From an uncultured Oscillospiraceae bacterium (lineage in GTDB: Bacteria > Bacillota > Clostridia > Oscillospirales > Acutalibacteraceae): DNA of 64,000 bases. This document shows positions 3,615 through 53,645 of this stretch, in pieces (positions within the stretch are counted from its first letter, which is position 1; each line of letters opens with the position of its first letter). The notes under the pieces were generated by a model. It saw only the letters and a program-made list of their open reading frames with translations, was not told the DNA's origin and searched no databases. The DNA is taken from assembly GCA_900540295.1 (NCBI GenBank), contig UQFM01000002.1, forward strand, positions 5,491 to 69,490, written 5' to 3'. A program made the translations under genes and the position numbers.

Positions 3615-3767
3615 CCGTGTCTGTGTATTCGGTATACCGTGTGCTGTGTGCGCAAACTCCCTCAGTCACACACTTCGTGTGTGCCAGCTCCCTCGGGGAG
3701 GGAGCGAAAAGAGGTTTATAAATTAAAAACTTCACCTGACGGTGCAGAATGACAAGCGTATGCAGAT

Positions 3768-4211
3768 TTATTTTGTCCCTGTTGACCCGAAGCCGCCCGC
3801 GCCCCGTTCGGTTTCGTCTAAATCCGCCGCTTCTTCCACGGGCATCACGGAAACGGGCATCACCACAAGCTGTGCAATGCGTTCACCGGGCTGGACGGTA
3901 TACGGCTCTTTGATTTGATTGATGACGCCGACCTTGATTTCACCGCGGTAGTCGCTGTCAATCACGCCGACGGAATTGAGCAGCCCGATACCGTGCTTAA
4001 TCGAAAGTCCGCTTCTGGCAAATACAAACGCGCCGTACTGCGCACTCGGCAGTGCGATAGCAAGCCCTGTGGGAATCAGCGCGGTTTCGCCGCCCGCGAG
4101 CGTCAGCGGTTCGTCGATGCACGCGCAAAGGTCTAAGCCCGCGCTCCCTGCGGTGGCGCGGTGCGGGATGACTGCATTTTCGTGTACTTTTTTAATTTTC
4201 AAGGTTTCCAT
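3768..4211 (-). CDS. dut: dUTP diphosphatase
   Basis: 147 aa. Motifs AGSAGLDL, GVIDSDYRGE and RIAQLVV are typical of trimeric dUTPases. Confidence 0.9.
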   Translation of the reverse strand: METLKIKKVHENAVIPHRATAGSAGLDLCACIDEPLTLAGGETALIPTGLAIALPSAQYGAFVFARSGLSIKHGIGLLNSVGVIDSDYRGEIKVGVINQIKEPYTVQPGERIAQLVVMPVSVMPVEEAADLDETERGAGGFGSTGTK

Positions 4212-6724: not shown

Positions 6725-7035
6725 AAGCTTGTCATTCTGCGCGTTCGCGAAGAATCGCACACGGCACGGAGTAAATCTGATTCTCGGTAGGGCGCGGGCT
6801 TGCTCGCGCCGCAGAATTTCATTAGATTTTTCGGACGAACACAGTTTGCCCCTGCGGGATTGGGATGTGTCTTTGGATTGTGCGAATTTCGCGGGCGATT
6901 TGTGAATCGCCCCTACACAGTCGGCGTGTTGCCGTTGGGGTGTACGATTTTTTTACGGGCGCGCAATGCACGCCCCTACGGGTTTGTCCGTTTGCGGGTC
7001 GCTGGGGATACGGCTGCGCGAAATTTTATCGGATT
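6725..7035. repeat. REP-like repeat cluster R1 (module A at 6731-6760 plus several hairpin-CTAC units)
   Basis: Contains TGTCATTCTGCGCGTTCGCGAAGAATC, GGGCGATTtgtgAATCGCCCCTAC and GGGCGCGCAATGCACGCCCCTACGGG. Members of the same family recur at eight other loci. Confidence 0.8.
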
Positions 7036-9059: not shown

Positions 9060-9165
9060 CAGGCCTCTACGGCGTGTTTTGCCGATGACCCAATTCTGCC
9101 GCAGAATGGTTTTCATTTTGTCGATCTCACGAAGAAATTCGATTTGGGATGTTAATTTTTGACTA
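9060..9165 (-). pseudogene. remnant of the 5' end (~35 codons) of the HD-domain gene found intact at 10808..11395
   Basis: Revcomp reads ..SQKLTSQIEFLREIDKMKTILRQNWVIGKTRR, versus the intact MDSQKLTSQIEFLREIDKMKSVLRQNWVIGNARR. The ATG is destroyed, the copy carries several synonymous changes, and similarity breaks after codon ~35. Confidence 0.7.
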
Positions 9166-9352
9166 TATTGTAGGGGGCGACGGTCTCGCCTGCCGGCTTG
9201 GTCGGTGCTTCTGCATACTTCCGTATGCAGAGGTCTCCACCGGAGACCCGCACCCCGCCCTACCGAGAATCAAATTCATCCTGTGCCATGTGAGATTCTT
9301 CGCTGACGCTCAGAATGACAAGTCTGCGCAAACTGTGTAGGGGCGGATGTCC
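9166..9352. repeat. REP-like repeat cluster R2 (module A reverse at 9292-9322)
   Basis: TGTAGGGGGCGAcggtcTCGCC..., CCCTACCGAGAATCAAATTCATCC and GAGATTCTTCGCTGACGCTCAGAATGACAAG. The same edge architecture is seen in R3. Confidence 0.8.
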
Positions 9353-9469
9353 TCGTTTGATACCATTTCAGGTAACAGATTAAACCGTTTCATTTCAAGA
9401 CTCTAATCTGTTACCCATGTCCTTACACTCCTGTTACCTTTCTTTACTCTTGACAGTCCTCATCCGCCC

Positions 9470-10537
9470 CTACGGTTCGCATATTAACTGCGTCGTTGCC
9501 GAATCCATCGCGCGCAATGCCTTTTGCGCCCATACATTCTGCGGCTCGATTTGCAAAACGAAACGGAGCCTGCCGATTAAATGCGCCGCGTACCGCTCGG
9601 CGTTCGGCACGCCGTTTTCTATAAAATCCGTTCTGTCGGCGTGCAAAATGCTGTCGGCAACACCGAATTTTAATGCGTAATAGACTTCTTGGCGCAGACC
9701 GCGCTTGTAATCGGCAGACACAGATACTTTTTCATTCACGGTAAGCCCCGTCACGCTTTGACGGGTCGCATTCGTAAAGAATTTGGTTTTGCGCTCGTTT
9801 AACACAAAGCCCATTTCGCGGAGCATTGCTTGCGCTTTTTGATAAACCGCATACAGCGGCACATCTGCCGAAAAGGTCATATCGTCACAGTAGCGCGTGT
9901 AGGCAATGCCGCGCGCGGCACACCACTTGCCGAGGTTGTCGTCAAAATTGCGCATAACCAAATTGGAAAGCGCGGGCGAAGTCGGCGCACCTTGGGGAAG
10001 CGCTTCTTCCCGACAGCAGAGGGTGGTCAGAAGCACGCCGACGGATTTCGGGAAATAGCGCGTGTGGAATGCGGCACTGTAAACCTGCCCAAAGCGGATG
10101 CTGCCGAAAAAATCCGTGATATCCAGCTTTAAAAGATAGCGTTTGCCGACGTGCGGGGCGGCATTTGCGCGCAACGAACTGCCGGGTGCATAAGCCGTTG
10201 CATACGGCGAAATCGGCAGTTTTTGCAGAATCTGCCGCAGAATACGGACTTGCAGTGCGCGAAGCTCTGCGTTCGGCACATACAGTCGGCGCACGCCGCC
10301 GTTCTTTTTGCGGATTGTCACCGCGCGGTACGCATCGTCTGCGTGATTCCAATAATTGTACAGCTTGCGTCTGCCGATTTTTAAGCAAGCCGCAGTTTGG
10401 TAGGTATCATACAGAAATGGCAGGGGCTGTACTAAGGTATAATCCAATACCATTTCGGTTGCCGCCGCAATGCCGAATTTCCGCACAAATGCCATATCGC
10501 ATTCCGAAAATCGGACGGTATCTCCCAGCACTTGCAT
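9470..10537 (-). CDS. retron-type reverse transcriptase
   Basis: 355 aa. RT motifs: RKKNGGVRRL (domain 1); NAAPH (retron-specific NAxxH) in ANAAPHVGKRYLLKLDITDFFGSI; LPQGAPTSPALSNLVM; YCDD catalytic box; VTG in RQSVTGLTVN. RBS TGGAGTGA sits 6 nt upstream of the ATG. Confidence 0.9.
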   Translation of the reverse strand: MQVLGDTVRFSECDMAFVRKFGIAAATEMVLDYTLVQPLPFLYDTYQTAACLKIGRRKLYNYWNHADDAYRAVTIRKKNGGVRRLYVPNAELRALQVRILRQILQKLPISPYATAYAPGSSLRANAAPHVGKRYLLKLDITDFFGSIRFGQVYSAAFHTRYFPKSVGVLLTTLCCREEALPQGAPTSPALSNLVMRNFDDNLGKWCAARGIAYTRYCDDMTFSADVPLYAVYQKAQAMLREMGFVLNERKTKFFTNATRQSVTGLTVNEKVSVSADYKRGLRQEVYYALKFGVADSILHADRTDFIENGVPNAERYAAHLIGRLRFVLQIEPQNVWAQKALRAMDSATTQLICEP

Positions 10538-10562
10538 ACAAGGTCACTCCAAAAAATAAAAA

Positions 10563-10761
10563 TCCGCACTTCGCAGTACAAAATGACGCGGTAAAAGCGC
10601 AGGCGAACCCGAAAATCACGCAGTGATTGGTAGTTCGTCGGAGCGTTACCGTGCAACGTTTTTTCCGTGGGAAAAACGAGCATCGGGGATGGAAAACCAA
10701 GCGGCGACTCGCCGCTCTGCTTGAAACTGTTTTCAAGCTGTACACTACTGCAAAGTGCGGA
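10563..10761 (-). ncRNA. retron msr-msd non-coding RNA (candidate)
   Basis: A 16-bp inverted repeat a1/a2 spans 10746-10761 / 10563-10578 (TACTGCAAAGTGCGGA vs revcomp TACTGCGAAGTGCGGA) with one G-U position. A G lies immediately 3' of a1 as a candidate branch point. The 5' part has two short stem-loops (GCUUGAAA/UUUCAAGC and GCGGCG/CGCCGC). The 3' part has a long interrupted hairpin (CGGUAA..CGAAC..AAUCAC-ugc-GUGAUU..GUUCG..UUACCG). It ends 25 nt before the RT start. Confidence 0.75.
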
Positions 10762-10771
10762 ATATATACTA

Positions 10772-10800
10772 ATCATATCGGATATGTGGCGGGGTGTCAA
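10772..10800 (-). promoter_or_regulatory. consensus sigma-A promoter driving the retron ncRNA-RT transcript
   Basis: Minus strand reads TTGACA, 17 nt, TATGAT. The predicted TSS is ~4 nt upstream of a1. The -35 box lies 7 nt after the HD gene stop. Confidence 0.7.
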
Positions 10801-10807
10801 TACGGCA

Positions 10808-11395
10808 TTATTTCAATAGCCCTTTTTTGTAACACGACTCCACGGCAAACTCCACAAATGCCCAAAGCGCGGGAAGAACCTCTTTGGTCAACGCATTGCG
10901 TGCATAGACCTGTTCGCGGGTGACGGTGCGCCCTTTCCAAGAGGCACCGTCCGTATAGTAGTTTAACAGTAGGGGCTGTAAGCGGTCAATCGCGGCGGCA
11001 TACTGCGCATCGTCGGTTTCGGCTTTGTCGAATTCTTCCCATAGTGCGCGGTAGGCTTTGCCCTGCTCGTCGGGCAGGAGCGCTTCCACGCGGTCAGCGG
11101 CAAGAGCTTCGCGTGCCTGCTGTGTTTCCACAACGTCCTTGTCAAAACACGGTGTGTCGCCCGCATAGATTTCCACCAAATCGTGAACCAACAGCATACG
11201 GACGGCACGGTCAATATTGACTGTGGGCTTCGCGTATTCAGAGAGCGTGAGCGCCATCATCGCCGCGTGCCACGAGTGCGCGGCGTCGTCCTCACGGCGT
11301 GCGTTGCCGATGACCCAATTCTGCCGCAAAACAGATTTCATTTTGTCGATTTCTCGAAGGAATTCAATTTGAGAGGTTAATTTTTGACTATCCAT
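10808..11395 (-). CDS. HD-domain phosphohydrolase, YfbR-like 5'-deoxynucleotidase family
   Basis: 195 aa. AAHSWHAAMMAL and LLVHDLVEIYAGDTP match the YfbR HD motif. Co-oriented with and immediately upstream of the retron. Its 5' 105 bp is duplicated as a fragment at 9060-9165. Confidence 0.8.
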   Translation of the reverse strand: MDSQKLTSQIEFLREIDKMKSVLRQNWVIGNARREDDAAHSWHAAMMALTLSEYAKPTVNIDRAVRMLLVHDLVEIYAGDTPCFDKDVVETQQAREALAADRVEALLPDEQGKAYRALWEEFDKAETDDAQYAAAIDRLQPLLLNYYTDGASWKGRTVTREQVYARNALTKEVLPALWAFVEFAVESCYKKGLLK

Positions 11396-11437: not shown

Positions 11438-11690
11438 ATGTAGGGGGCGATTTTTTACATCTGCATGTACTTGCGTTTACAAACCGTAGGGGCGTGCATT
11501 GCGCGCCCGCCGAAGTCTGATGAATTTTGCGGACGGACGAGGACGTCCGTCCCTACGCGCAAATCCAATTCATTTTGTACTGTGGGCAGGACGGACAGCC
11601 ACAAGGGCTGTCCCTACGGGTTGCGAATCAAATTCACCTTGTTCTGTGTGCGATTCTTCGCTGCGCTCAGAATGACAGATTGTTCCACAT
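11438..11690. repeat. REP-like repeat cluster R3 (module A reverse at 11650-11678)
   Basis: Contains CGTAGGGGCGTGCATTGCGCGCCC, GGACGGACGAGGACGTCCGTCCCTACGCG, GGACGGACAGCCacaaGGGCTGTCCCTACGGG and GCGATTCTTCGCTGCGCTCAGAATGACAG. Confidence 0.8.
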
Positions 11691-16531: not shown

Positions 16532-16726
16532 TTAATTTTGTTTATGTACCATTTTATATTCATCGTATGCGCTGAAGTACGGACAGCTTTGCGTGTTGAA
16601 ACTTAAAAAGTTCACCATTTCGTCTTCGTCCAAATTGATTTCGCAGACATACTGTTCGCTTTCCTCGTCATAATCGTAATATGCGCAGAAATCACAGCGC
16701 GACGCGGGCGCTTTTGTATTTTCCAT
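16532..16726 (-). CDS. small Cys-containing hypothetical protein (DUF-type, CDFCAYYDYDEE..YVC)
   Basis: 64 aa, acidic. Translationally coupled to the cyclase gene (ATGA overlap). Confidence 0.5.
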   Translation of the reverse strand: MENTKAPASRCDFCAYYDYDEESEQYVCEINLDEDEMVNFLSFNTQSCPYFSAYDEYKMVHKQN

Positions 16727-17331
16727 TATGCTTTACCGCTCCAAAAAATATAGTCGCTGATGAGCACGGCGCGCGTGAACGCCGCTTCCGCCCCGCCGAT
16801 TTTCACAGGGGGCGCGATTAAAAAGTATTCGCCGTTTGACGTTTCGGAAAGATTCAAGCCCTCTAACAGCACCACATTTTCCTGCAAAAAGGCGCGGTGC
16901 GTCTGCCCCGTGCCGTGCGGCGGTTCTACGGTTAAACCGTCCGTGCCGCAAAGCTTACAGCCGTAATACGCCATCGCCTCGGCGGCGGTTTCATGAATAA
17001 ATGCCTTGCCGCCGCTTTTTAAAAGAATACGCTCAACGCCGCGCGGAAATGCATTTTCCACAACCTCGCCTGTAATGATGCCCGGGGAAACCTCAATTAC
17101 CCTGCAAGGGCCGATACAGGTTTCGAGAGGGATTGCGCCGACGTCGGGCGCGTCTTCCAAAAAATGCAGCGGTGCATCCATATGGGTGCCGTTATGTAAC
17201 CCCGCATACAGCGCGTTTAAGTTGTATGCATCGCCGTTTTGCAGTTTGGCAATCGGCGAAAGTTCGGGAACGGGGTCACCCTCATAAACTTCCGCCGTCA
17301 GTAAATCGTTGGAAATATCGATGATTTTCAT
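16726..17331 (-). CDS. cyclase family protein (kynurenine formamidase-like)
   Basis: HNGTHMDAPLHF is the signature motif of the putative-cyclase family. Confidence 0.8.
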   Translation of the reverse strand: MKIIDISNDLLTAEVYEGDPVPELSPIAKLQNGDAYNLNALYAGLHNGTHMDAPLHFLEDAPDVGAIPLETCIGPCRVIEVSPGIITGEVVENAFPRGVERILLKSGGKAFIHETAAEAMAYYGCKLCGTDGLTVEPPHGTGQTHRAFLQENVVLLEGLNLSETSNGEYFLIAPPVKIGGAEAAFTRAVLISDYIFWSGKA

Positions 17332-17349: not shown

Positions 17350-17697
17350 ATTTATGTTATTTGTTTGTCATTCTGAGCGAAGCGAAGAATCTCACATCGC
17401 ACAAAGTAAATTGTACAATCGGTAGGGCGGGGAAGATTTCCCTATTAGGGAAAATGTCACAAAGTGACAAAAGGGTGATGGCGTAGCCGTAACTTGCCCC
17501 TGCCGCAACTCGGTACAAAATTTCTACTCTGCTCGGGCGCGCAATGCACGCCCCTACGTTCGGTGCGTTTCCGTAAAATTGTGCAGATTCCGCGGGCGCT
17601 TCGTGAAGCGCCCCTACGATTTTTGCGTTGCCATTAGCATTGTGCAAAATCCAACCTTGCTCGGACGGACGGGGACGTCCGTCCCTACGCGGTACAC
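17350..17697. repeat. REP-like repeat cluster R4 (module A forward at 17355-17384)
   Basis: TGTCATTCTGAGCGAAGCGAAGAATCTCAC, then GGGCGCGCAATGCACGCCCCTACG, GGGCGCTTcgtgAAGCGCCCCTACG and GGACGGACGGGGACGTCCGTCCCTACGCG. Confidence 0.8.
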
Positions 17698-27832: not shown

Positions 27833-28197
27833 GGCAATGCACACCCCGTAGGGGGCGACGACTCGGCGCCCCGCAAAAATCTGCACAAACCGTAGGGGCG
27901 AATGCCTCCCTTGTGAAAGGGAGGTGGCACGGCGAAGCCGTGACGGAGGGATTCCCACCCGCGAAATCCGTGCAAACCAACGGCGGGGCACACACCCGTA
28001 GGGGCGTGCATTGCGCGCCCGCACATTTCGCGCAAATTGACGGTTGTGTACAAACCCCGTAGGGGCGAACTGTGTTCGCCCGATGAAATTTGCTGAAACT
28101 TTGCGGGTCGTCGCGGACGCCGACCCCTACAATTGTGCATCCAATTTTAATTGTTCTGTGTAAGAGTCTTCGCCTAAGGGGCTCAGAATGACAAATT
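27833..28197. repeat. REP-like repeat cluster R5 (module A reverse at 28164-28196)
   Basis: Four or more CGTAGGGGCG-hairpin units (GGGCGAACtgtgTTCGCCC, GGGCGTGCATTGCGCGCCC, GGGTCGTCgcggaCGCCGACCCCTAC) followed by GAGTCTTCGCCTAAGGGGCTCAGAATGACAAAT. Confidence 0.8.
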
Positions 28198-42784: not shown

Positions 42785-42860
42785 CATCAGATTCCACGGG
42801 CGCGCAATGCACGCTCCTACGGGGTTGGCACAGATTTGTCATTCTGAGCCGATAGGCGAA
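42785..42860. repeat. REP-like repeat cluster R6 (module A forward at 42827-42858)
   Basis: GGGCGCGCAATGCACGCTCCTACGGGG plus TGTCATTCTGAGCCGATAGGCGAAGAATCTCC. Confidence 0.8.
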
Positions 42861-42885
42861 GAATCTCCCGCAGAATGAAGTGAAG

Positions 42886-44172
42886 TTACAGCAATTTTTC
42901 AACATCCGCAAGGCGGATGCGTTTGGAAATGATATACGTTTTGCGCACCTGCTTGCCCTTGTCAGTTTTATATGTACCGTCCTCTTTTTTCTCCGCGGAG
43001 AAAATGCCGTACGAGGCGGTCACAACCGTCCCGTCGGAGAGCACAACATTGCCGCAGTAGCCTGTGTCCGCATTGGCGGTTACGCTCGGGGCGTTTTGGA
43101 AATCCAAATAGGTATGTGCAATTTTGATGCGGTACTGCCCCTCTCTGCCGTTTTTCAAATCGGCATATGTGCCGACCCAAGCAATCCAGCCCTCGGAATA
43201 CCACTTCATGGACTTTTTCTCGAAATGACTTTCCCACTTTGCTTTATCGCGTTCGATGGAACGGAAGGTAATAAACAGACGACCGTCGGGCAGCCACTCT
43301 GCGTGATGGCGTTCGCCGTTCAGCGCGGCGGGTGCTTCGACGGGCTTCGACCAGGTTTTGCCCTCATCTTTTGAAAAACTCAATAGCGAATTGATTTTTT
43401 TAGAATTACTGCGGGTAATGAGCATCAATTCGTCTCCTTGTCCGCCGTCCGAGCGCACACACTCCACTTCGCACATGTTGGAGTGCTTTTCCATACCGCG
43501 GTAGGCGGAAAAATACGGCGTAGGTCTTGACCAGTGCATATTGCCTGCATCGTCAAACGTTAAAATTGTTTTGTAATTTACAAAATTTCGCTCATGGAAC
43601 AGCCCCATCCACTTGTCCGCAAATTTTCCGTTTTCTTTTAAGCGCGTCAGCGAGCTCATCGGTACAATCGGAAGGCAGGAAAAAACAGGGTCGTTTTTTC
43701 CGTAAAACAACTGATATTCGCTCCATGTTTTGCCCTCATCCGAGGAAACGGAACAATTGAAGCCGCCGGGCGTCGGCAAATTCGGCCATTTCGGATTGCC
43801 GCAAATGAGAATCAGCTTGTCGTCCCAATCGTGCTCGGAAAATTCCAAACGGTAGACTGTCGGTGTTTCCAGCGAGGTTTCCCAGCTTTTCGGCGGATTT
43901 TCGATGGCGTCGGAATAACTTCTGCCGCCGTCATGACTGATGCGCGACAGCGTTTTGCCCTTACCGTGTCCTTCGGGGAAGAATGTTAAAATCGATTCGT
44001 CATTTAAAAGTACGGAATCGGGATGACCTAAATACCCTTGCCCCGCATCCACCGTAGTTTGCGTGAACAGTTCCGAAAGGGCATCGTCTGCGCCGTCGGG
44101 ACGCACGCTCAAATCGATTTGCGGAATGGTATAAGCCTTGCCGGGGGTACGGTATTTGCTGTTCCAAAACAT
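42886..44172 (-). CDS. BNR/Asp-box repeat glycoside hydrolase (sialidase-like), cytoplasmic
   Basis: Asp-boxes SSDEGKTW, SKDEGKTW and SHDGGRSY. No signal peptide. Confidence 0.65.
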   Translation of the reverse strand: MFWNSKYRTPGKAYTIPQIDLSVRPDGADDALSELFTQTTVDAGQGYLGHPDSVLLNDESILTFFPEGHGKGKTLSRISHDGGRSYSDAIENPPKSWETSLETPTVYRLEFSEHDWDDKLILICGNPKWPNLPTPGGFNCSVSSDEGKTWSEYQLFYGKNDPVFSCLPIVPMSSLTRLKENGKFADKWMGLFHERNFVNYKTILTFDDAGNMHWSRPTPYFSAYRGMEKHSNMCEVECVRSDGGQGDELMLITRSNSKKINSLLSFSKDEGKTWSKPVEAPAALNGERHHAEWLPDGRLFITFRSIERDKAKWESHFEKKSMKWYSEGWIAWVGTYADLKNGREGQYRIKIAHTYLDFQNAPSVTANADTGYCGNVVLSDGTVVTASYGIFSAEKKEDGTYKTDKGKQVRKTYIISKRIRLADVEKLL

Positions 44173-44243: not shown

Positions 44244-44368
44244 AGTAGGGGCGAACTGCCCGCCGAAATCTGATGAAATCCTGCGGCGGGGGCAAGATCT
44301 CGCCCTACCGAGAATCAAATCCACTCTGTGTCATGTGCGATTCTTCGCCTACGGCTCAGAATGACAGA
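44244..44368. repeat. REP-like repeat cluster R7 (module A reverse at 44337-44367)
   Basis: GTAGGGGCGAACTGCCCGCC..., CCCTACCGAGAATCAAATCCAC and GCGATTCTTCGCCTACGGCTCAGAATGACAG. Confidence 0.8.
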
Positions 44369-46282: not shown

Positions 46283-46362
46283 ATTGTCATTCTGAGCGCA
46301 GCGAAGAATCGCCCTCGGCACAAGGCAAAATTGATTCGAGCGTAGGGCGCAGGCTTGCCGGC
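46283..46362. repeat. REP-like repeat cluster R8 (module A forward at 46285-46313)
   Basis: TGTCATTCTGAGCGCAGCGAAGAATCGCC plus GCGTAGGGCGCAGGCTTGCC. Confidence 0.8.
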
Positions 46363-53321: not shown

Positions 53322-53645
53322 GTAACCCCGTAGGGGCGGATGCCTTCATCCGCCCGCCCGCAATCTGATGAAACTTCGCGGACGGACAAGGATGTCCGTC
53401 CCTACGCGTAGGATGAAAATATAGCACAACCTGTAAGGGGCGGGTTATTCCCCTGACAGGGGAAATGTCTGCAAAGCAGACAAAAGGGTTCCCGTTTTCG
53501 GAGAAAATCCACGCCCGCCCGAGTGCAGGTGGATTTCACACAAAATCGGTGGTGATACACAAACCGCGTAGGGGCGAACTGTGTTCGCCCGCCGAAGTCT
53601 GCTATAATTTTACGGAACAACACAGAGGTTGTTCCCTACACCGTA
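53322..53645. repeat. REP-like repeat cluster R9 (hairpin-CTAC units only, no module A)
   Basis: CCGTAGGGGCGGATGCCTTCATCCGCCC, GGACGGACAAGGATGTCCGTCCCTACGCGTAGG, CGTAGGGGCGAACTGTGTTCGCCC and GGAACAACacagagGTTGTTCCCTACACCG. Confidence 0.8.

Follow-up and report, generated by a model that had tools for sequence, protein, structure and literature searches.

The DNA analysed here, called the window, is a stretch of 64,000 nucleotides (nt) from an uncultured Oscillospiraceae bacterium (contig UQFM01000002.1, positions 5,491 to 69,490), and the element in question is a hairpin module of about 26 nt that recurs between its genes. At the focal locus a cyclase gene occupies positions 16726-17331 of the minus strand, and the module lies 35 nt upstream of its start, antisense to it. 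Beyond the module, a linker leads to a cluster of GTAG-tagged repetitive extragenic palindromes (REPs). Six other assemblies of the species have the same sequence at this locus, without any polymorphism.

Copies and anatomy of the module

With up to 2 mismatches allowed, the 13-mer TGTCATTCTGAGC was matched 9 times in the window against 0.94 expected, a count reached by none of 100 shuffled sequences. A covariance model (R1), built from 40 distinct module variants and used to score the whole window without filters, gave exactly 8 matches at E<=0.002, 4 on each strand, the next-best match having E=3.6 (Table 1). Pattern count and model thus both place the module far above chance, as a recurrent element already noticed in the initial annotation of this DNA. 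The copies listed there are real, two of them (17355 and 42827) having been placed about 10 nt too far to the left; the span then proposed for the focal copy, 17355-17384, cuts off the 3' arm and was corrected to 17366-17392.

Table 1. Module copies, adjacent repeat features and sequence forms of the module (positions are those of the window)
Feature	Positions	Strand	Score	Description
Focal module	17366-17392	+	49.1 bits, E=5e-9	TGTC tag, ATTCT-GA-GC-GAA-GC-GA-AGAAT, then invariant C
Module copy	6730-6757	+	26.8 bits, E=6e-4	Between the divergent genes zapA and hlyIII
Module copy	9293-9320	-	39.3 bits	Downstream of the retron reverse transcriptase gene; a REP on each side
Module copy	11651-11677	-	45.7 bits	18 nt past the mfd stop codon, sense orientation
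Module copy	28163-28193	-	24.5 bits, E=0.002	Diverged: 7-nt loop, one stem mismatch
Module copy	42837-42866	+	36.5 bits	GCC/GGC upper stem; REP at the tag side only
Module copy	44338-44366	-	34.3 bits	GCC/GGC upper stem; then one REP doublet (REPIN)
Module copy	46285-46311	+	45.7 bits	Between two GTAG-type REPs whose tags point at the module
Linker	17393-17421	+		About 30 nt, CACAnnGCACAnnGTnAATT...TCG; joins the module to the next GTAG REP; conserved among window copies
GTAG-tagged REP hairpin with nested insert in loop	17422-17505	+		First REP of the cluster 17422-17688
Module sequence forms				TGTCAYYCTGAGCGNAGCGAAGRRTC (site, with tandem G.A and GNA triloop); TGTCATTCTGAGCGAAGCGAAGAATC

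All 8 copies are intergenic and lie within regions that also hold GTAG hairpins. The copy between zapA and hlyIII has A11 replaced by C, so that one G.A opposition becomes a C-G pair, and the diverged copy at 28163-28193 is located 98 nt upstream of a gene for an MFS transporter and antisense to it. Six of the 8 copies keep all the invariant positions described below, including the G.A pairs and the tag, and the other 2 are degraded.

The layout of the module is TGTC-ATTCT-GA-GC(G/C)-loop-(C/G)GC-GA-AGAAT-C. The tag, which is TGTC in 8/8 window copies, precedes a lower stem of 5 bp, followed by a symmetric internal loop of two G.A oppositions, an upper stem of 2-3 bp alternating between GCG/CGC and GCC/GGC, and a loop of 3-7 nt in the window copies. 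The weak hairpin with a variable loop of the initial annotation is thereby upheld and refined. The stem arms ATTCTGAGC/GCGAAGAAT comprise 9 positions, the first pairs being A-T then T-A, and positions 6 and 7 form the conserved G.A mismatches. Since the ends TGTC and C are not palindromic and the internal loop of the opposite strand would be TC/CT, the module is directional. The columns that never vary among the 40 distinct variants are G2, T3, C4, the G.A/GC core and C26. In 195 copies from other genomes the tag is TGTC (181 copies), CGTC (8), AGTC (3) or GGTC (3). Most loops are GNA triloops (GAA 59, GCA 51, GTA 23, GGA 18). The 3' tail opens with the invariant C and continues with CT or CC, not CA.

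Covariation was calculated on the best 150 of the 235 copies that the model finds in 100 of the loci listed from other genomes. In this set, 100% of the cells in 7 pairs are standard base pairs and compensatory changes are present in 6 of the 7, with both sides changed among the lower-stem variants ATTCT/AGAAT, ATCCT/AGGAT, ACCCT/AGGGT, ATGCT/AGCAT and ATGTT/AACAT. When the alignment was slid as a control, pairing fell to 18-52%. This alignment was fitted to the model and is hence biased; independently of that bias, the count of lower-stem pairs over all the sequences sharing merely the core GAGC..GCGA is bimodal, with a random peak at 2 and 201 sequences having all 5. Nearest-neighbour calculations recovered the hairpin itself, at -1.9 kcal/mol for DNA and -5.7 kcal/mol for RNA (z about 0, and -0.3 for RNA). 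Energy models of this type deal poorly with tandem sheared G.A pairs (5'-Y-GA-R-3') and with C-GNA-G triloops, both of which give DNA an unusual stability. Because thermodynamic folding gave no signal, the structure is argued here from covariation.

A hairpin located between genes might have a role in RNA, where it would stabilise 3' ends, direct processing or end transcription, as has been suggested for many REPs. Three sense copies lie just past stop codons (11677, 44366 and 9320), and many REPs are considered transcribed by Di Nocera et al. (PMC3733652). The same role is suggested by a decayed module-like sequence, TGTCATTCTGCACCGTCAGGTGAAGTTTTT, at 3725-3754(-), which was not scored by the covariance model: located directly past the stop codon of a dUTPase-like gene (3768-4211, minus strand), it has lost its lower 3' arm, is directly followed by a T-run and resembles an intrinsic terminator. 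We nonetheless regard a function at the RNA level as improbable. The orientation of the 8 window copies relative to the flanking genes is sense in 3 cases, antisense in 4 and between divergent genes in 1, and this lack of bias with respect to transcription fits a role at the DNA level. No T-run follows any of the 8 copies or is found on either strand there, the stability of the RNA hairpin is that of shuffled sequences, and the closest available relatives of the adjacent cyclase gene are wholly devoid of the module. Rfam 15 gave no match at the gathering score in the window or at the modules of 18 loci, the search of one cluster at E<=10 returning chance-level matches only. Moreover, the RNA form of the related NTS site of Neisseria, presented below, is not bound by the nuclease SsnA (PMC11893778). 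The terminator and the small-RNA end that had been suggested for this module find no support in these data.

By comparison of the module with the respective consensus sequences, we also discarded a hammerhead (CUGA is present without a following NGA), a K-turn (no 3-nt bulge), an IHF site (no WATCAANNNNTTR) and an outward -35 box ATGACA, for which the only plausible -10 box puts the transcription start inside the ribosome binding site.

Distribution and association with small GIY-YIG genes

The arms of the module were looked up in related and other genomes, as the initial annotation had advised, by running the pattern TGTCATTCTGAGC-N3-9-GCGAAGAATC on a collection with one genome per species. 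Among the matches listed, the exact pattern was found in at least 120 loci belonging to at least 16 bacterial phyla, including Nitrospirota, Bacteroidota, Chloroflexota, Acidobacteriota, Pseudomonadota, Desulfobacterota, Campylobacterota, Planctomycetota, Verrucomicrobiota, Bacillota and Patescibacteria. The exact pattern was also detected in 113 stretches of viral contigs.

Paired modules of other genomes are arranged head-to-head, with the tags outside, in 44 cases, tail-to-tail, with the tags inside, in 8 cases and head-to-tail, in tandem, in 9 cases. The inverted pairs of other phyla are often separated by 17-45 nt; within 120 nt, no head-to-head homodimer of the module was found in the window. 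Single modules can be found inside genes, as with a 27-nt insertion in frame within a hisA-type gene of Lacinutrix (Pfam His_biosynth, 6e-71). In Pedobacter nototheniae (L060, 3512-4077) five to six modules follow each other in the same orientation with a spacing of about 101-135 nt, a head-to-tail array that contrasts with the usual inverted pairs.

Small open reading frames (ORFs) having hairpins of the module kind at both sides were searched for. This search identified GIY-YIG proteins of 109 and 114 amino acids, with PF01541 as their only domain, one in a locus from Gracilibacteria (L020) and the other on a viral contig (L307). A profile built from these two proteins has at least 8000 homologues. 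Six homologues were fetched by protein identity alone, blind to their genomic context, from two named metagenome-assembled genomes (MAGs; Verrucomicrobiae and Nitrospirae) and four metagenomes, and a scan of the viral contigs for the nuclease yielded one extra locus only. In all 9 loci of the resulting set (L020 and L307, then L320, L321, L322 and L324-L327 for the fetched homologues and the further viral locus), the exact module brackets the GIY-YIG gene with its tags outward, and the encoded proteins have 103-116 amino acids and PF01541 only. In each of them the module of the plus strand is located 13-100 nt upstream of the called or trimmed start, and that of the minus strand at or past the stop codon. 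The downstream module, or a variant of it, even overlaps the stop codon of the nuclease gene in 5 loci (L020 6578-6603; L322 and L327 1513-1538; L324 1513-1553; L325 1180-1205), and in L020 both the stop and the C-terminal residues ..DSSLRSE are encoded by the variant copy. Around a more distantly related homologue (L047, 47-54% identity) the flanking hairpins belong to the same superfamily and have different stems, one of them the canonical ATTCCCGCG stem; such differing stems are as predicted for co-varying pairs of enzyme and site.

Other procedures missed this nuclease. An all-against-all clustering of the ORFs of at least 90 amino acids from the 120 loci returned only common paralogous families (Gfo/Idh/MocA, SDR, ABC and SpoIIE-GAF), because only 3 of the 120 loci hold a homologue, which is too few to rank. 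A crude GIY-YIG regular expression missed it as well, and NCBIfam gave nothing above cut-off for the associated proteins. In L321, L326 and L327 another short hairpin repeat, CCGCACCCTT-N-AAGGGTGCGG, lies beside the units formed by module, GIY-YIG gene and module.

The module begins with TGTCA and its inverted pairs 17-45 nt apart are frequent in other phyla, as might be expected from the terminal inverted repeats of a conventional miniature inverted-repeat transposable element or insertion sequence (with a DDE transposase), or from a palindromic transcription-factor operator. Both origins appear highly improbable. The gene found between inverted modules encodes a GIY-YIG protein of about 100 amino acids and no transposase, no transposase family recurs near the 120 loci, and single units of 27 nt are found inserted in frame. 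Taken alone, each arm already forms a hairpin, with compensatory changes and with ends that are asymmetric and non-palindromic, features that a duplex operator or a terminal repeat does not need, and a site that is identical in at least 16 phyla is at odds with a lineage-specific regulator.

Relation to Ssn target sites and tagged REPs

The module was compared with the NTS, a 28-nt sequence that contains the dRS3 element (the CGTC-1 of Neisseria) and is bound only as single-stranded DNA (ssDNA) by SsnA, a single-domain GIY-YIG protein of 94 amino acids (PMC11893778). The cut made by SsnA falls upstream of the hairpin, at a distance of a few nt (Chenal et al., Nat Commun 2025, PMC11893778). The C located right after the palindrome is key for binding, the three nt before the palindrome are key for cleavage, and the reverse strand, double-stranded DNA and RNA are not substrates (PMC11893778). 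The ssnA genes are flanked by their own motifs, the system lowers the integration of transforming DNA, and 81% of the genomes with more than 200 Ssn-related motifs (SRMs) encode an Ssn (PMC11893778).

Both the module and the NTS are directional hairpins, about 26-28 nt in length, whose palindrome is immediately preceded by GTC and immediately followed by C, and the invariant G2, T3, C4 and C26 of the module are exactly the positions critical for cleavage and binding of the NTS. They also have in common the ATTC/GAAT base of the stem, the hundreds of dispersed copies, the occurrence in many phyla and the architecture in which a small single-domain GIY-YIG gene is placed between two motifs. They differ in the upper stem, T-GA-GC-GNA-GC-GA-A with two G.A mismatches and a triloop in the module against CCGCG-MAV-GCGGG in the NTS. 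The partner proteins of the module form a clade of their own and are putative nucleases. The window differs from the Neisseria case in that no partner gene was seen in it and the motif is fused to GTAG REPs.

On the strength of these likenesses, we consider that the module probably represents a strand-specific ssDNA hairpin of the CGTC/TGTC-tagged REP superfamily, of the kind named 'Ssn-related motif', serving as the target of a small GIY-YIG nuclease of the Ssn family. Of the functions that had been listed for it, the nicking site is the one favoured by the anatomy of the hairpin, which is that of an Ssn target, and by its position around the GIY-YIG genes. According to the mechanism that we propose, the TGTC-bearing strand would become single-stranded as a lagging-strand template, as incoming transforming or conjugative DNA or as phage ssDNA, and would fold into a stem of 9 positions, with the two G.A pairs as an interruption and a GNA-type loop at its tip. 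The small single-domain nuclease would bind the hairpin plus the following C and nick the strand a few nt 5' of the GTC tag, whereas the complementary strand, duplex DNA and RNA would not be substrates. The covarying hairpin, the invariant GTC and 3' C, the pan-phylum spread and the GIY-YIG bracketing come from the present analysis, and the biochemistry is that published for the related NTS site. We infer that the GIY-YIG clade identified here would cut the module, that the dispersed copies would descend from units formed by module, gene and module, and that the copies of the window are, or were, substrates of such an enzyme.

Several points weigh against this assignment. The two seeds have the six fetched homologues as their closest relatives, so that the count of 9 loci out of 9 describes one clade and not the whole family. 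The proteins, putative members of the CDD family cd10448, were assigned through Pfam PF01541, and their best PDB match, to UPF0213 BH0048, is weak (E=2e-4). A tblastn search of the window, of the 9.6 kb to its left (73.6 kb in total) and of the fetched Clostridia loci revealed no GIY-YIG or Ssn homologue, and therefore the copies present here may be relics. Because the nearest-neighbour folding was no better than that of shuffles, the stability of the hairpin would depend on the contributions of the G.A pairs and GNA loops described above. In the present genome, where the module is joined to GTAG REPs in a composite unit (see the last section), the spread of this composite need not involve an Ssn. 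Finally, the published SRM pattern, HGTCWYN(0-2)YYVSBRHN(0-5)WNVSBRGN(0-2)RNCYNB, a search device derived from 29 genomes (PMC11893778), matches the canonical NTS and none of the module variants, and its one match in the window is unrelated. This failure denotes a different sequence class and not a different architecture; the module thus looks like an undescribed class of Ssn sites lying outside the published pattern.

The superfamily to which we assign the module was described through the CGTC-tagged REPs CGTC-1 to CGTC-4, which include RPE-4 and RPE-6 of Rickettsia (Di Nocera, De Gregorio and Rocco, BMC Genomics 2013, PMC3733652). These have an unpaired CGTC, 'changed to TGTC in many repeats', stems of 8-9 bp starting with A-T, loops of 4-5 nt and short tails of 3 nt fitting CCA; dimers with the tags outside predominate, intragenic copies exist and several phyla are concerned (PMC3733652). 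No dedicated transposase was found for them and their protein partner was left open in 2013 (PMC3733652). The module resembles them by its unpaired (C/T)GTC tag, its stem of 8-9 positions with A-T then T-A, its tail beginning with C, the predominance of head-to-head dimers, the in-frame intragenic copies and the occurrence across phyla. It differs by a loop of mostly 3 nt and by the conserved tandem mismatch of the stem. Compared with CGTC-1, the tag and the ATTC/GAAT base are common and the upper stem is the module's own. The encoded peptides are VILSEAKN, CHSERSEES and RFFASLRMT for the module, against VIPAKAGI, RHSELVSGS, VIAGLDPAI and VIPWLDHGI for CGTC-1 to CGTC-4. The five phyla reported for CGTC REPs do not comprise Firmicutes, whereas the module also occurs in Bacillota.

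With the GTAG REPs, REPINs and bacterial interspersed mosaic elements (BIMEs) that depend on a REP-associated tyrosine transposase (RAYT, or TnpA-REP), the module shares the short intergenic ssDNA hairpin, the unpaired tetranucleotide tag, doublets able to form long hairpins, mosaic clusters and a partner gene flanked by its own repeats, and in this genome it is physically part of GTAG clusters. Its tag, however, is TGTC, with neither GTAG nor CTAC, the GTAG hairpins being separate neighbours located 30-34 nt away; its partner gene encodes a GIY-YIG nuclease and not an HUH/Y1 transposase; and its sequence is near-invariant across phyla whereas the stems of GTAG REPs are lineage-specific. The module is a distinct functional unit and not a GTAG REP variant, in agreement with the distinct function that had been supposed for it. 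Literature searches with the DNA and RNA strings of the module and with its peptides returned only primers or nothing, and the text of the REP papers was devoid of the motif.

Composite repeat clusters in this genome

In 7/8 window copies, the exception being 42837(+), a GTAGGG REP begins 30-34 nt 3' of the module, and in several copies a REP ending in CTAC is found about 15 nt 5' of the tag. The initial annotation placed the module always at the outer edge of a repeat cluster, beside a gene. This is true of 5/8 copies; at 9320, 46285 and 44366 the tag side of the module is also occupied by a REP or REP-like hairpin. The rule also fails on the same contig just left of the window, where a 9.6-kb stretch contains five more modules (L328 345-1256 and 7275-7851), with two modules in each of two clusters. 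Two of these five belong to tandem units of about 145 nt, each made of one GTAG-REP doublet (REPIN), the linker and the module. The real regularity is this mosaic unit of three hairpins (module plus REPIN, about 145 nt) and not the outer-edge placement. A run of N, corresponding to an assembly gap, is present inside one of these module clusters, which indicates that the repeats break the assembly.

The same REPIN-module junction was observed in MAGs of Oscillospiraceae and of Ca. Fimenecus. The most similar repeat arrangements being those of Oscillospiraceae MAGs, and an L21-Prp-L27 operon being present, the DNA probably comes from an organism of the gut Clostridia type. An obligate adjacency of the module to hairpin-CTAC clusters is refuted elsewhere, only 18 of 213 copies being located within 100 nt of GTAGGG or CCCTAC, and the module-REP link is a lineage-specific arrangement only. 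Neither module nor REP cluster was detected in 80 metagenome loci (346 kb) encoding relatives of the adjacent cyclase (77-24% identity), which shows that the clusters have expanded in a lineage-specific manner and are no conserved regulatory feature of those genes. These loci offered no clean empty site for comparison. Conservation of the linker implies that the multiplying unit in this genome is the composite of module and REPIN, which is repeated both dispersed and in tandem. The window copies, apparently orphans, are welded to GTAG REPs and probably multiply as part of the composite. The idea that the module marks where a mobile or duplicated unit ends is borne out in two ways: elsewhere, modules form the outward-facing ends of the module-GIY-YIG-module units, and here the module is one end of the unit of about 145 nt.

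These clusters could also be read without any active nuclease. The module would then be a former Ssn-type site that has no partner enzyme and persists as one of three hairpins in a BIME-like unit amplified by a RAYT, by slippage or by recombination, with the generic effects of a REP cluster. The conserved linker with its fixed spacing of 30-34 nt to the GTAG REP, the tandem composite repeats of 145 nt, the junction common to the Oscillospiraceae and Ca. Fimenecus MAGs, the lack of an Ssn gene in the 73.6 kb examined, the degradation of 2/8 copies and the absence of polymorphism between the focal locus and six other assemblies are all compatible with it. We judge such a passenger state rather unlikely, though clearly less so than the RNA-level role. 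Six of the 8 copies keep all the invariant positions, which argues for continuing constraint or a recent origin; the stretch inspected amounts to only about 3% of a typical genome; and an Ssn is encoded by 81% of the genomes with more than 200 SRMs (PMC11893778).

The modules at 42837-42866(+) and 44338-44366(-) bracket a single BNR-repeat (sialidase-like) gene (42886-44172) with their tags outward. This is the geometry observed around GIY-YIG genes elsewhere, and it recalls the NTS clusters found at particular genes of Neisseria.

In several GTAG REPs the loop contains a nested insert, 50-65 nt long (17422-17505, 27892-27962, 53433-53521 and also around 3680-3740). Each insert consists of two small hairpins, for example CCCTATTAGGG and GTCACAAAGTGAC, or CCTCCCTTGTGAAAGGGAGG and GGCACGGCGAAGCCGTGAC, forming a further repeat family that lives inside GTAG REP loops. 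In another GTAG REP, at 9337-9473, the arms GTAGGGGCGGATG ... CATCCGCCCCTAC stand about 105 nt apart, and the intervening sequence is A+T-rich and unrelated, which recalls an insertion into the loop. This split REP abuts the stop codon of the retron reverse transcriptase (RT) gene next to the module copy at 9293-9320.

The RT is encoded by the ORF 9470-10537(-), identified by the PADLOC model RT_Ec107-like (1e-119, type III-A models coming next) and by Pfam RVT_1. A non-coding stretch of 270 nt upstream of it (10538-10807) is a possible location of the msr/msd RNA; a retron RNA was not detected with Rfam. The stretch is preceded by a gene for an HD-domain (YfbR-like) protein (10808-11395), the 5' end of which (11294-11391) has a 98-nt copy, 88% identical, at 9069-9166 on the far side of the RT gene. 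This copy looks like a truncated duplicate left by the insertion or rearrangement of the retron cassette.

The intergenic repeat clusters of this genome are mosaics of two unrelated hairpin systems and not one REP family. The module also explains recurrent spurious ORFs: its reverse strand reads ..RFFASLRMT.., as had been noted initially, and others contain ..CHSERSEES.. or end with ..DSSLRSE*, the latter being able to form a genuine nuclease C-terminus. For the module family, the question of the protein partner raised by the CGTC-tagged REPs appears to be answered by the GIY-YIG gene that the repeat brackets. To our knowledge, Ssn nucleases are the only site-specific enzymes that cut exclusively ssDNA. 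The module and its clade would be a candidate new pair of enzyme and site, combining a defined 26-nt site and a defined protein clade, widespread and outside the published motif, and each such pair is a potential tool. In a broader and less probable reading, an uncharacterised clade of Ssn-type nucleases, present throughout bacteria, would recognise the module as its hairpin, and in this lineage of gut Clostridia the module would have been welded at a fixed spacing to GTAG REPINs, bringing two ssDNA-hairpin systems (GIY-YIG/Ssn and HUH/RAYT) into one mosaic unit. If so, each system may mobilise the other, or both together may govern how ssDNA is taken up and recombined.

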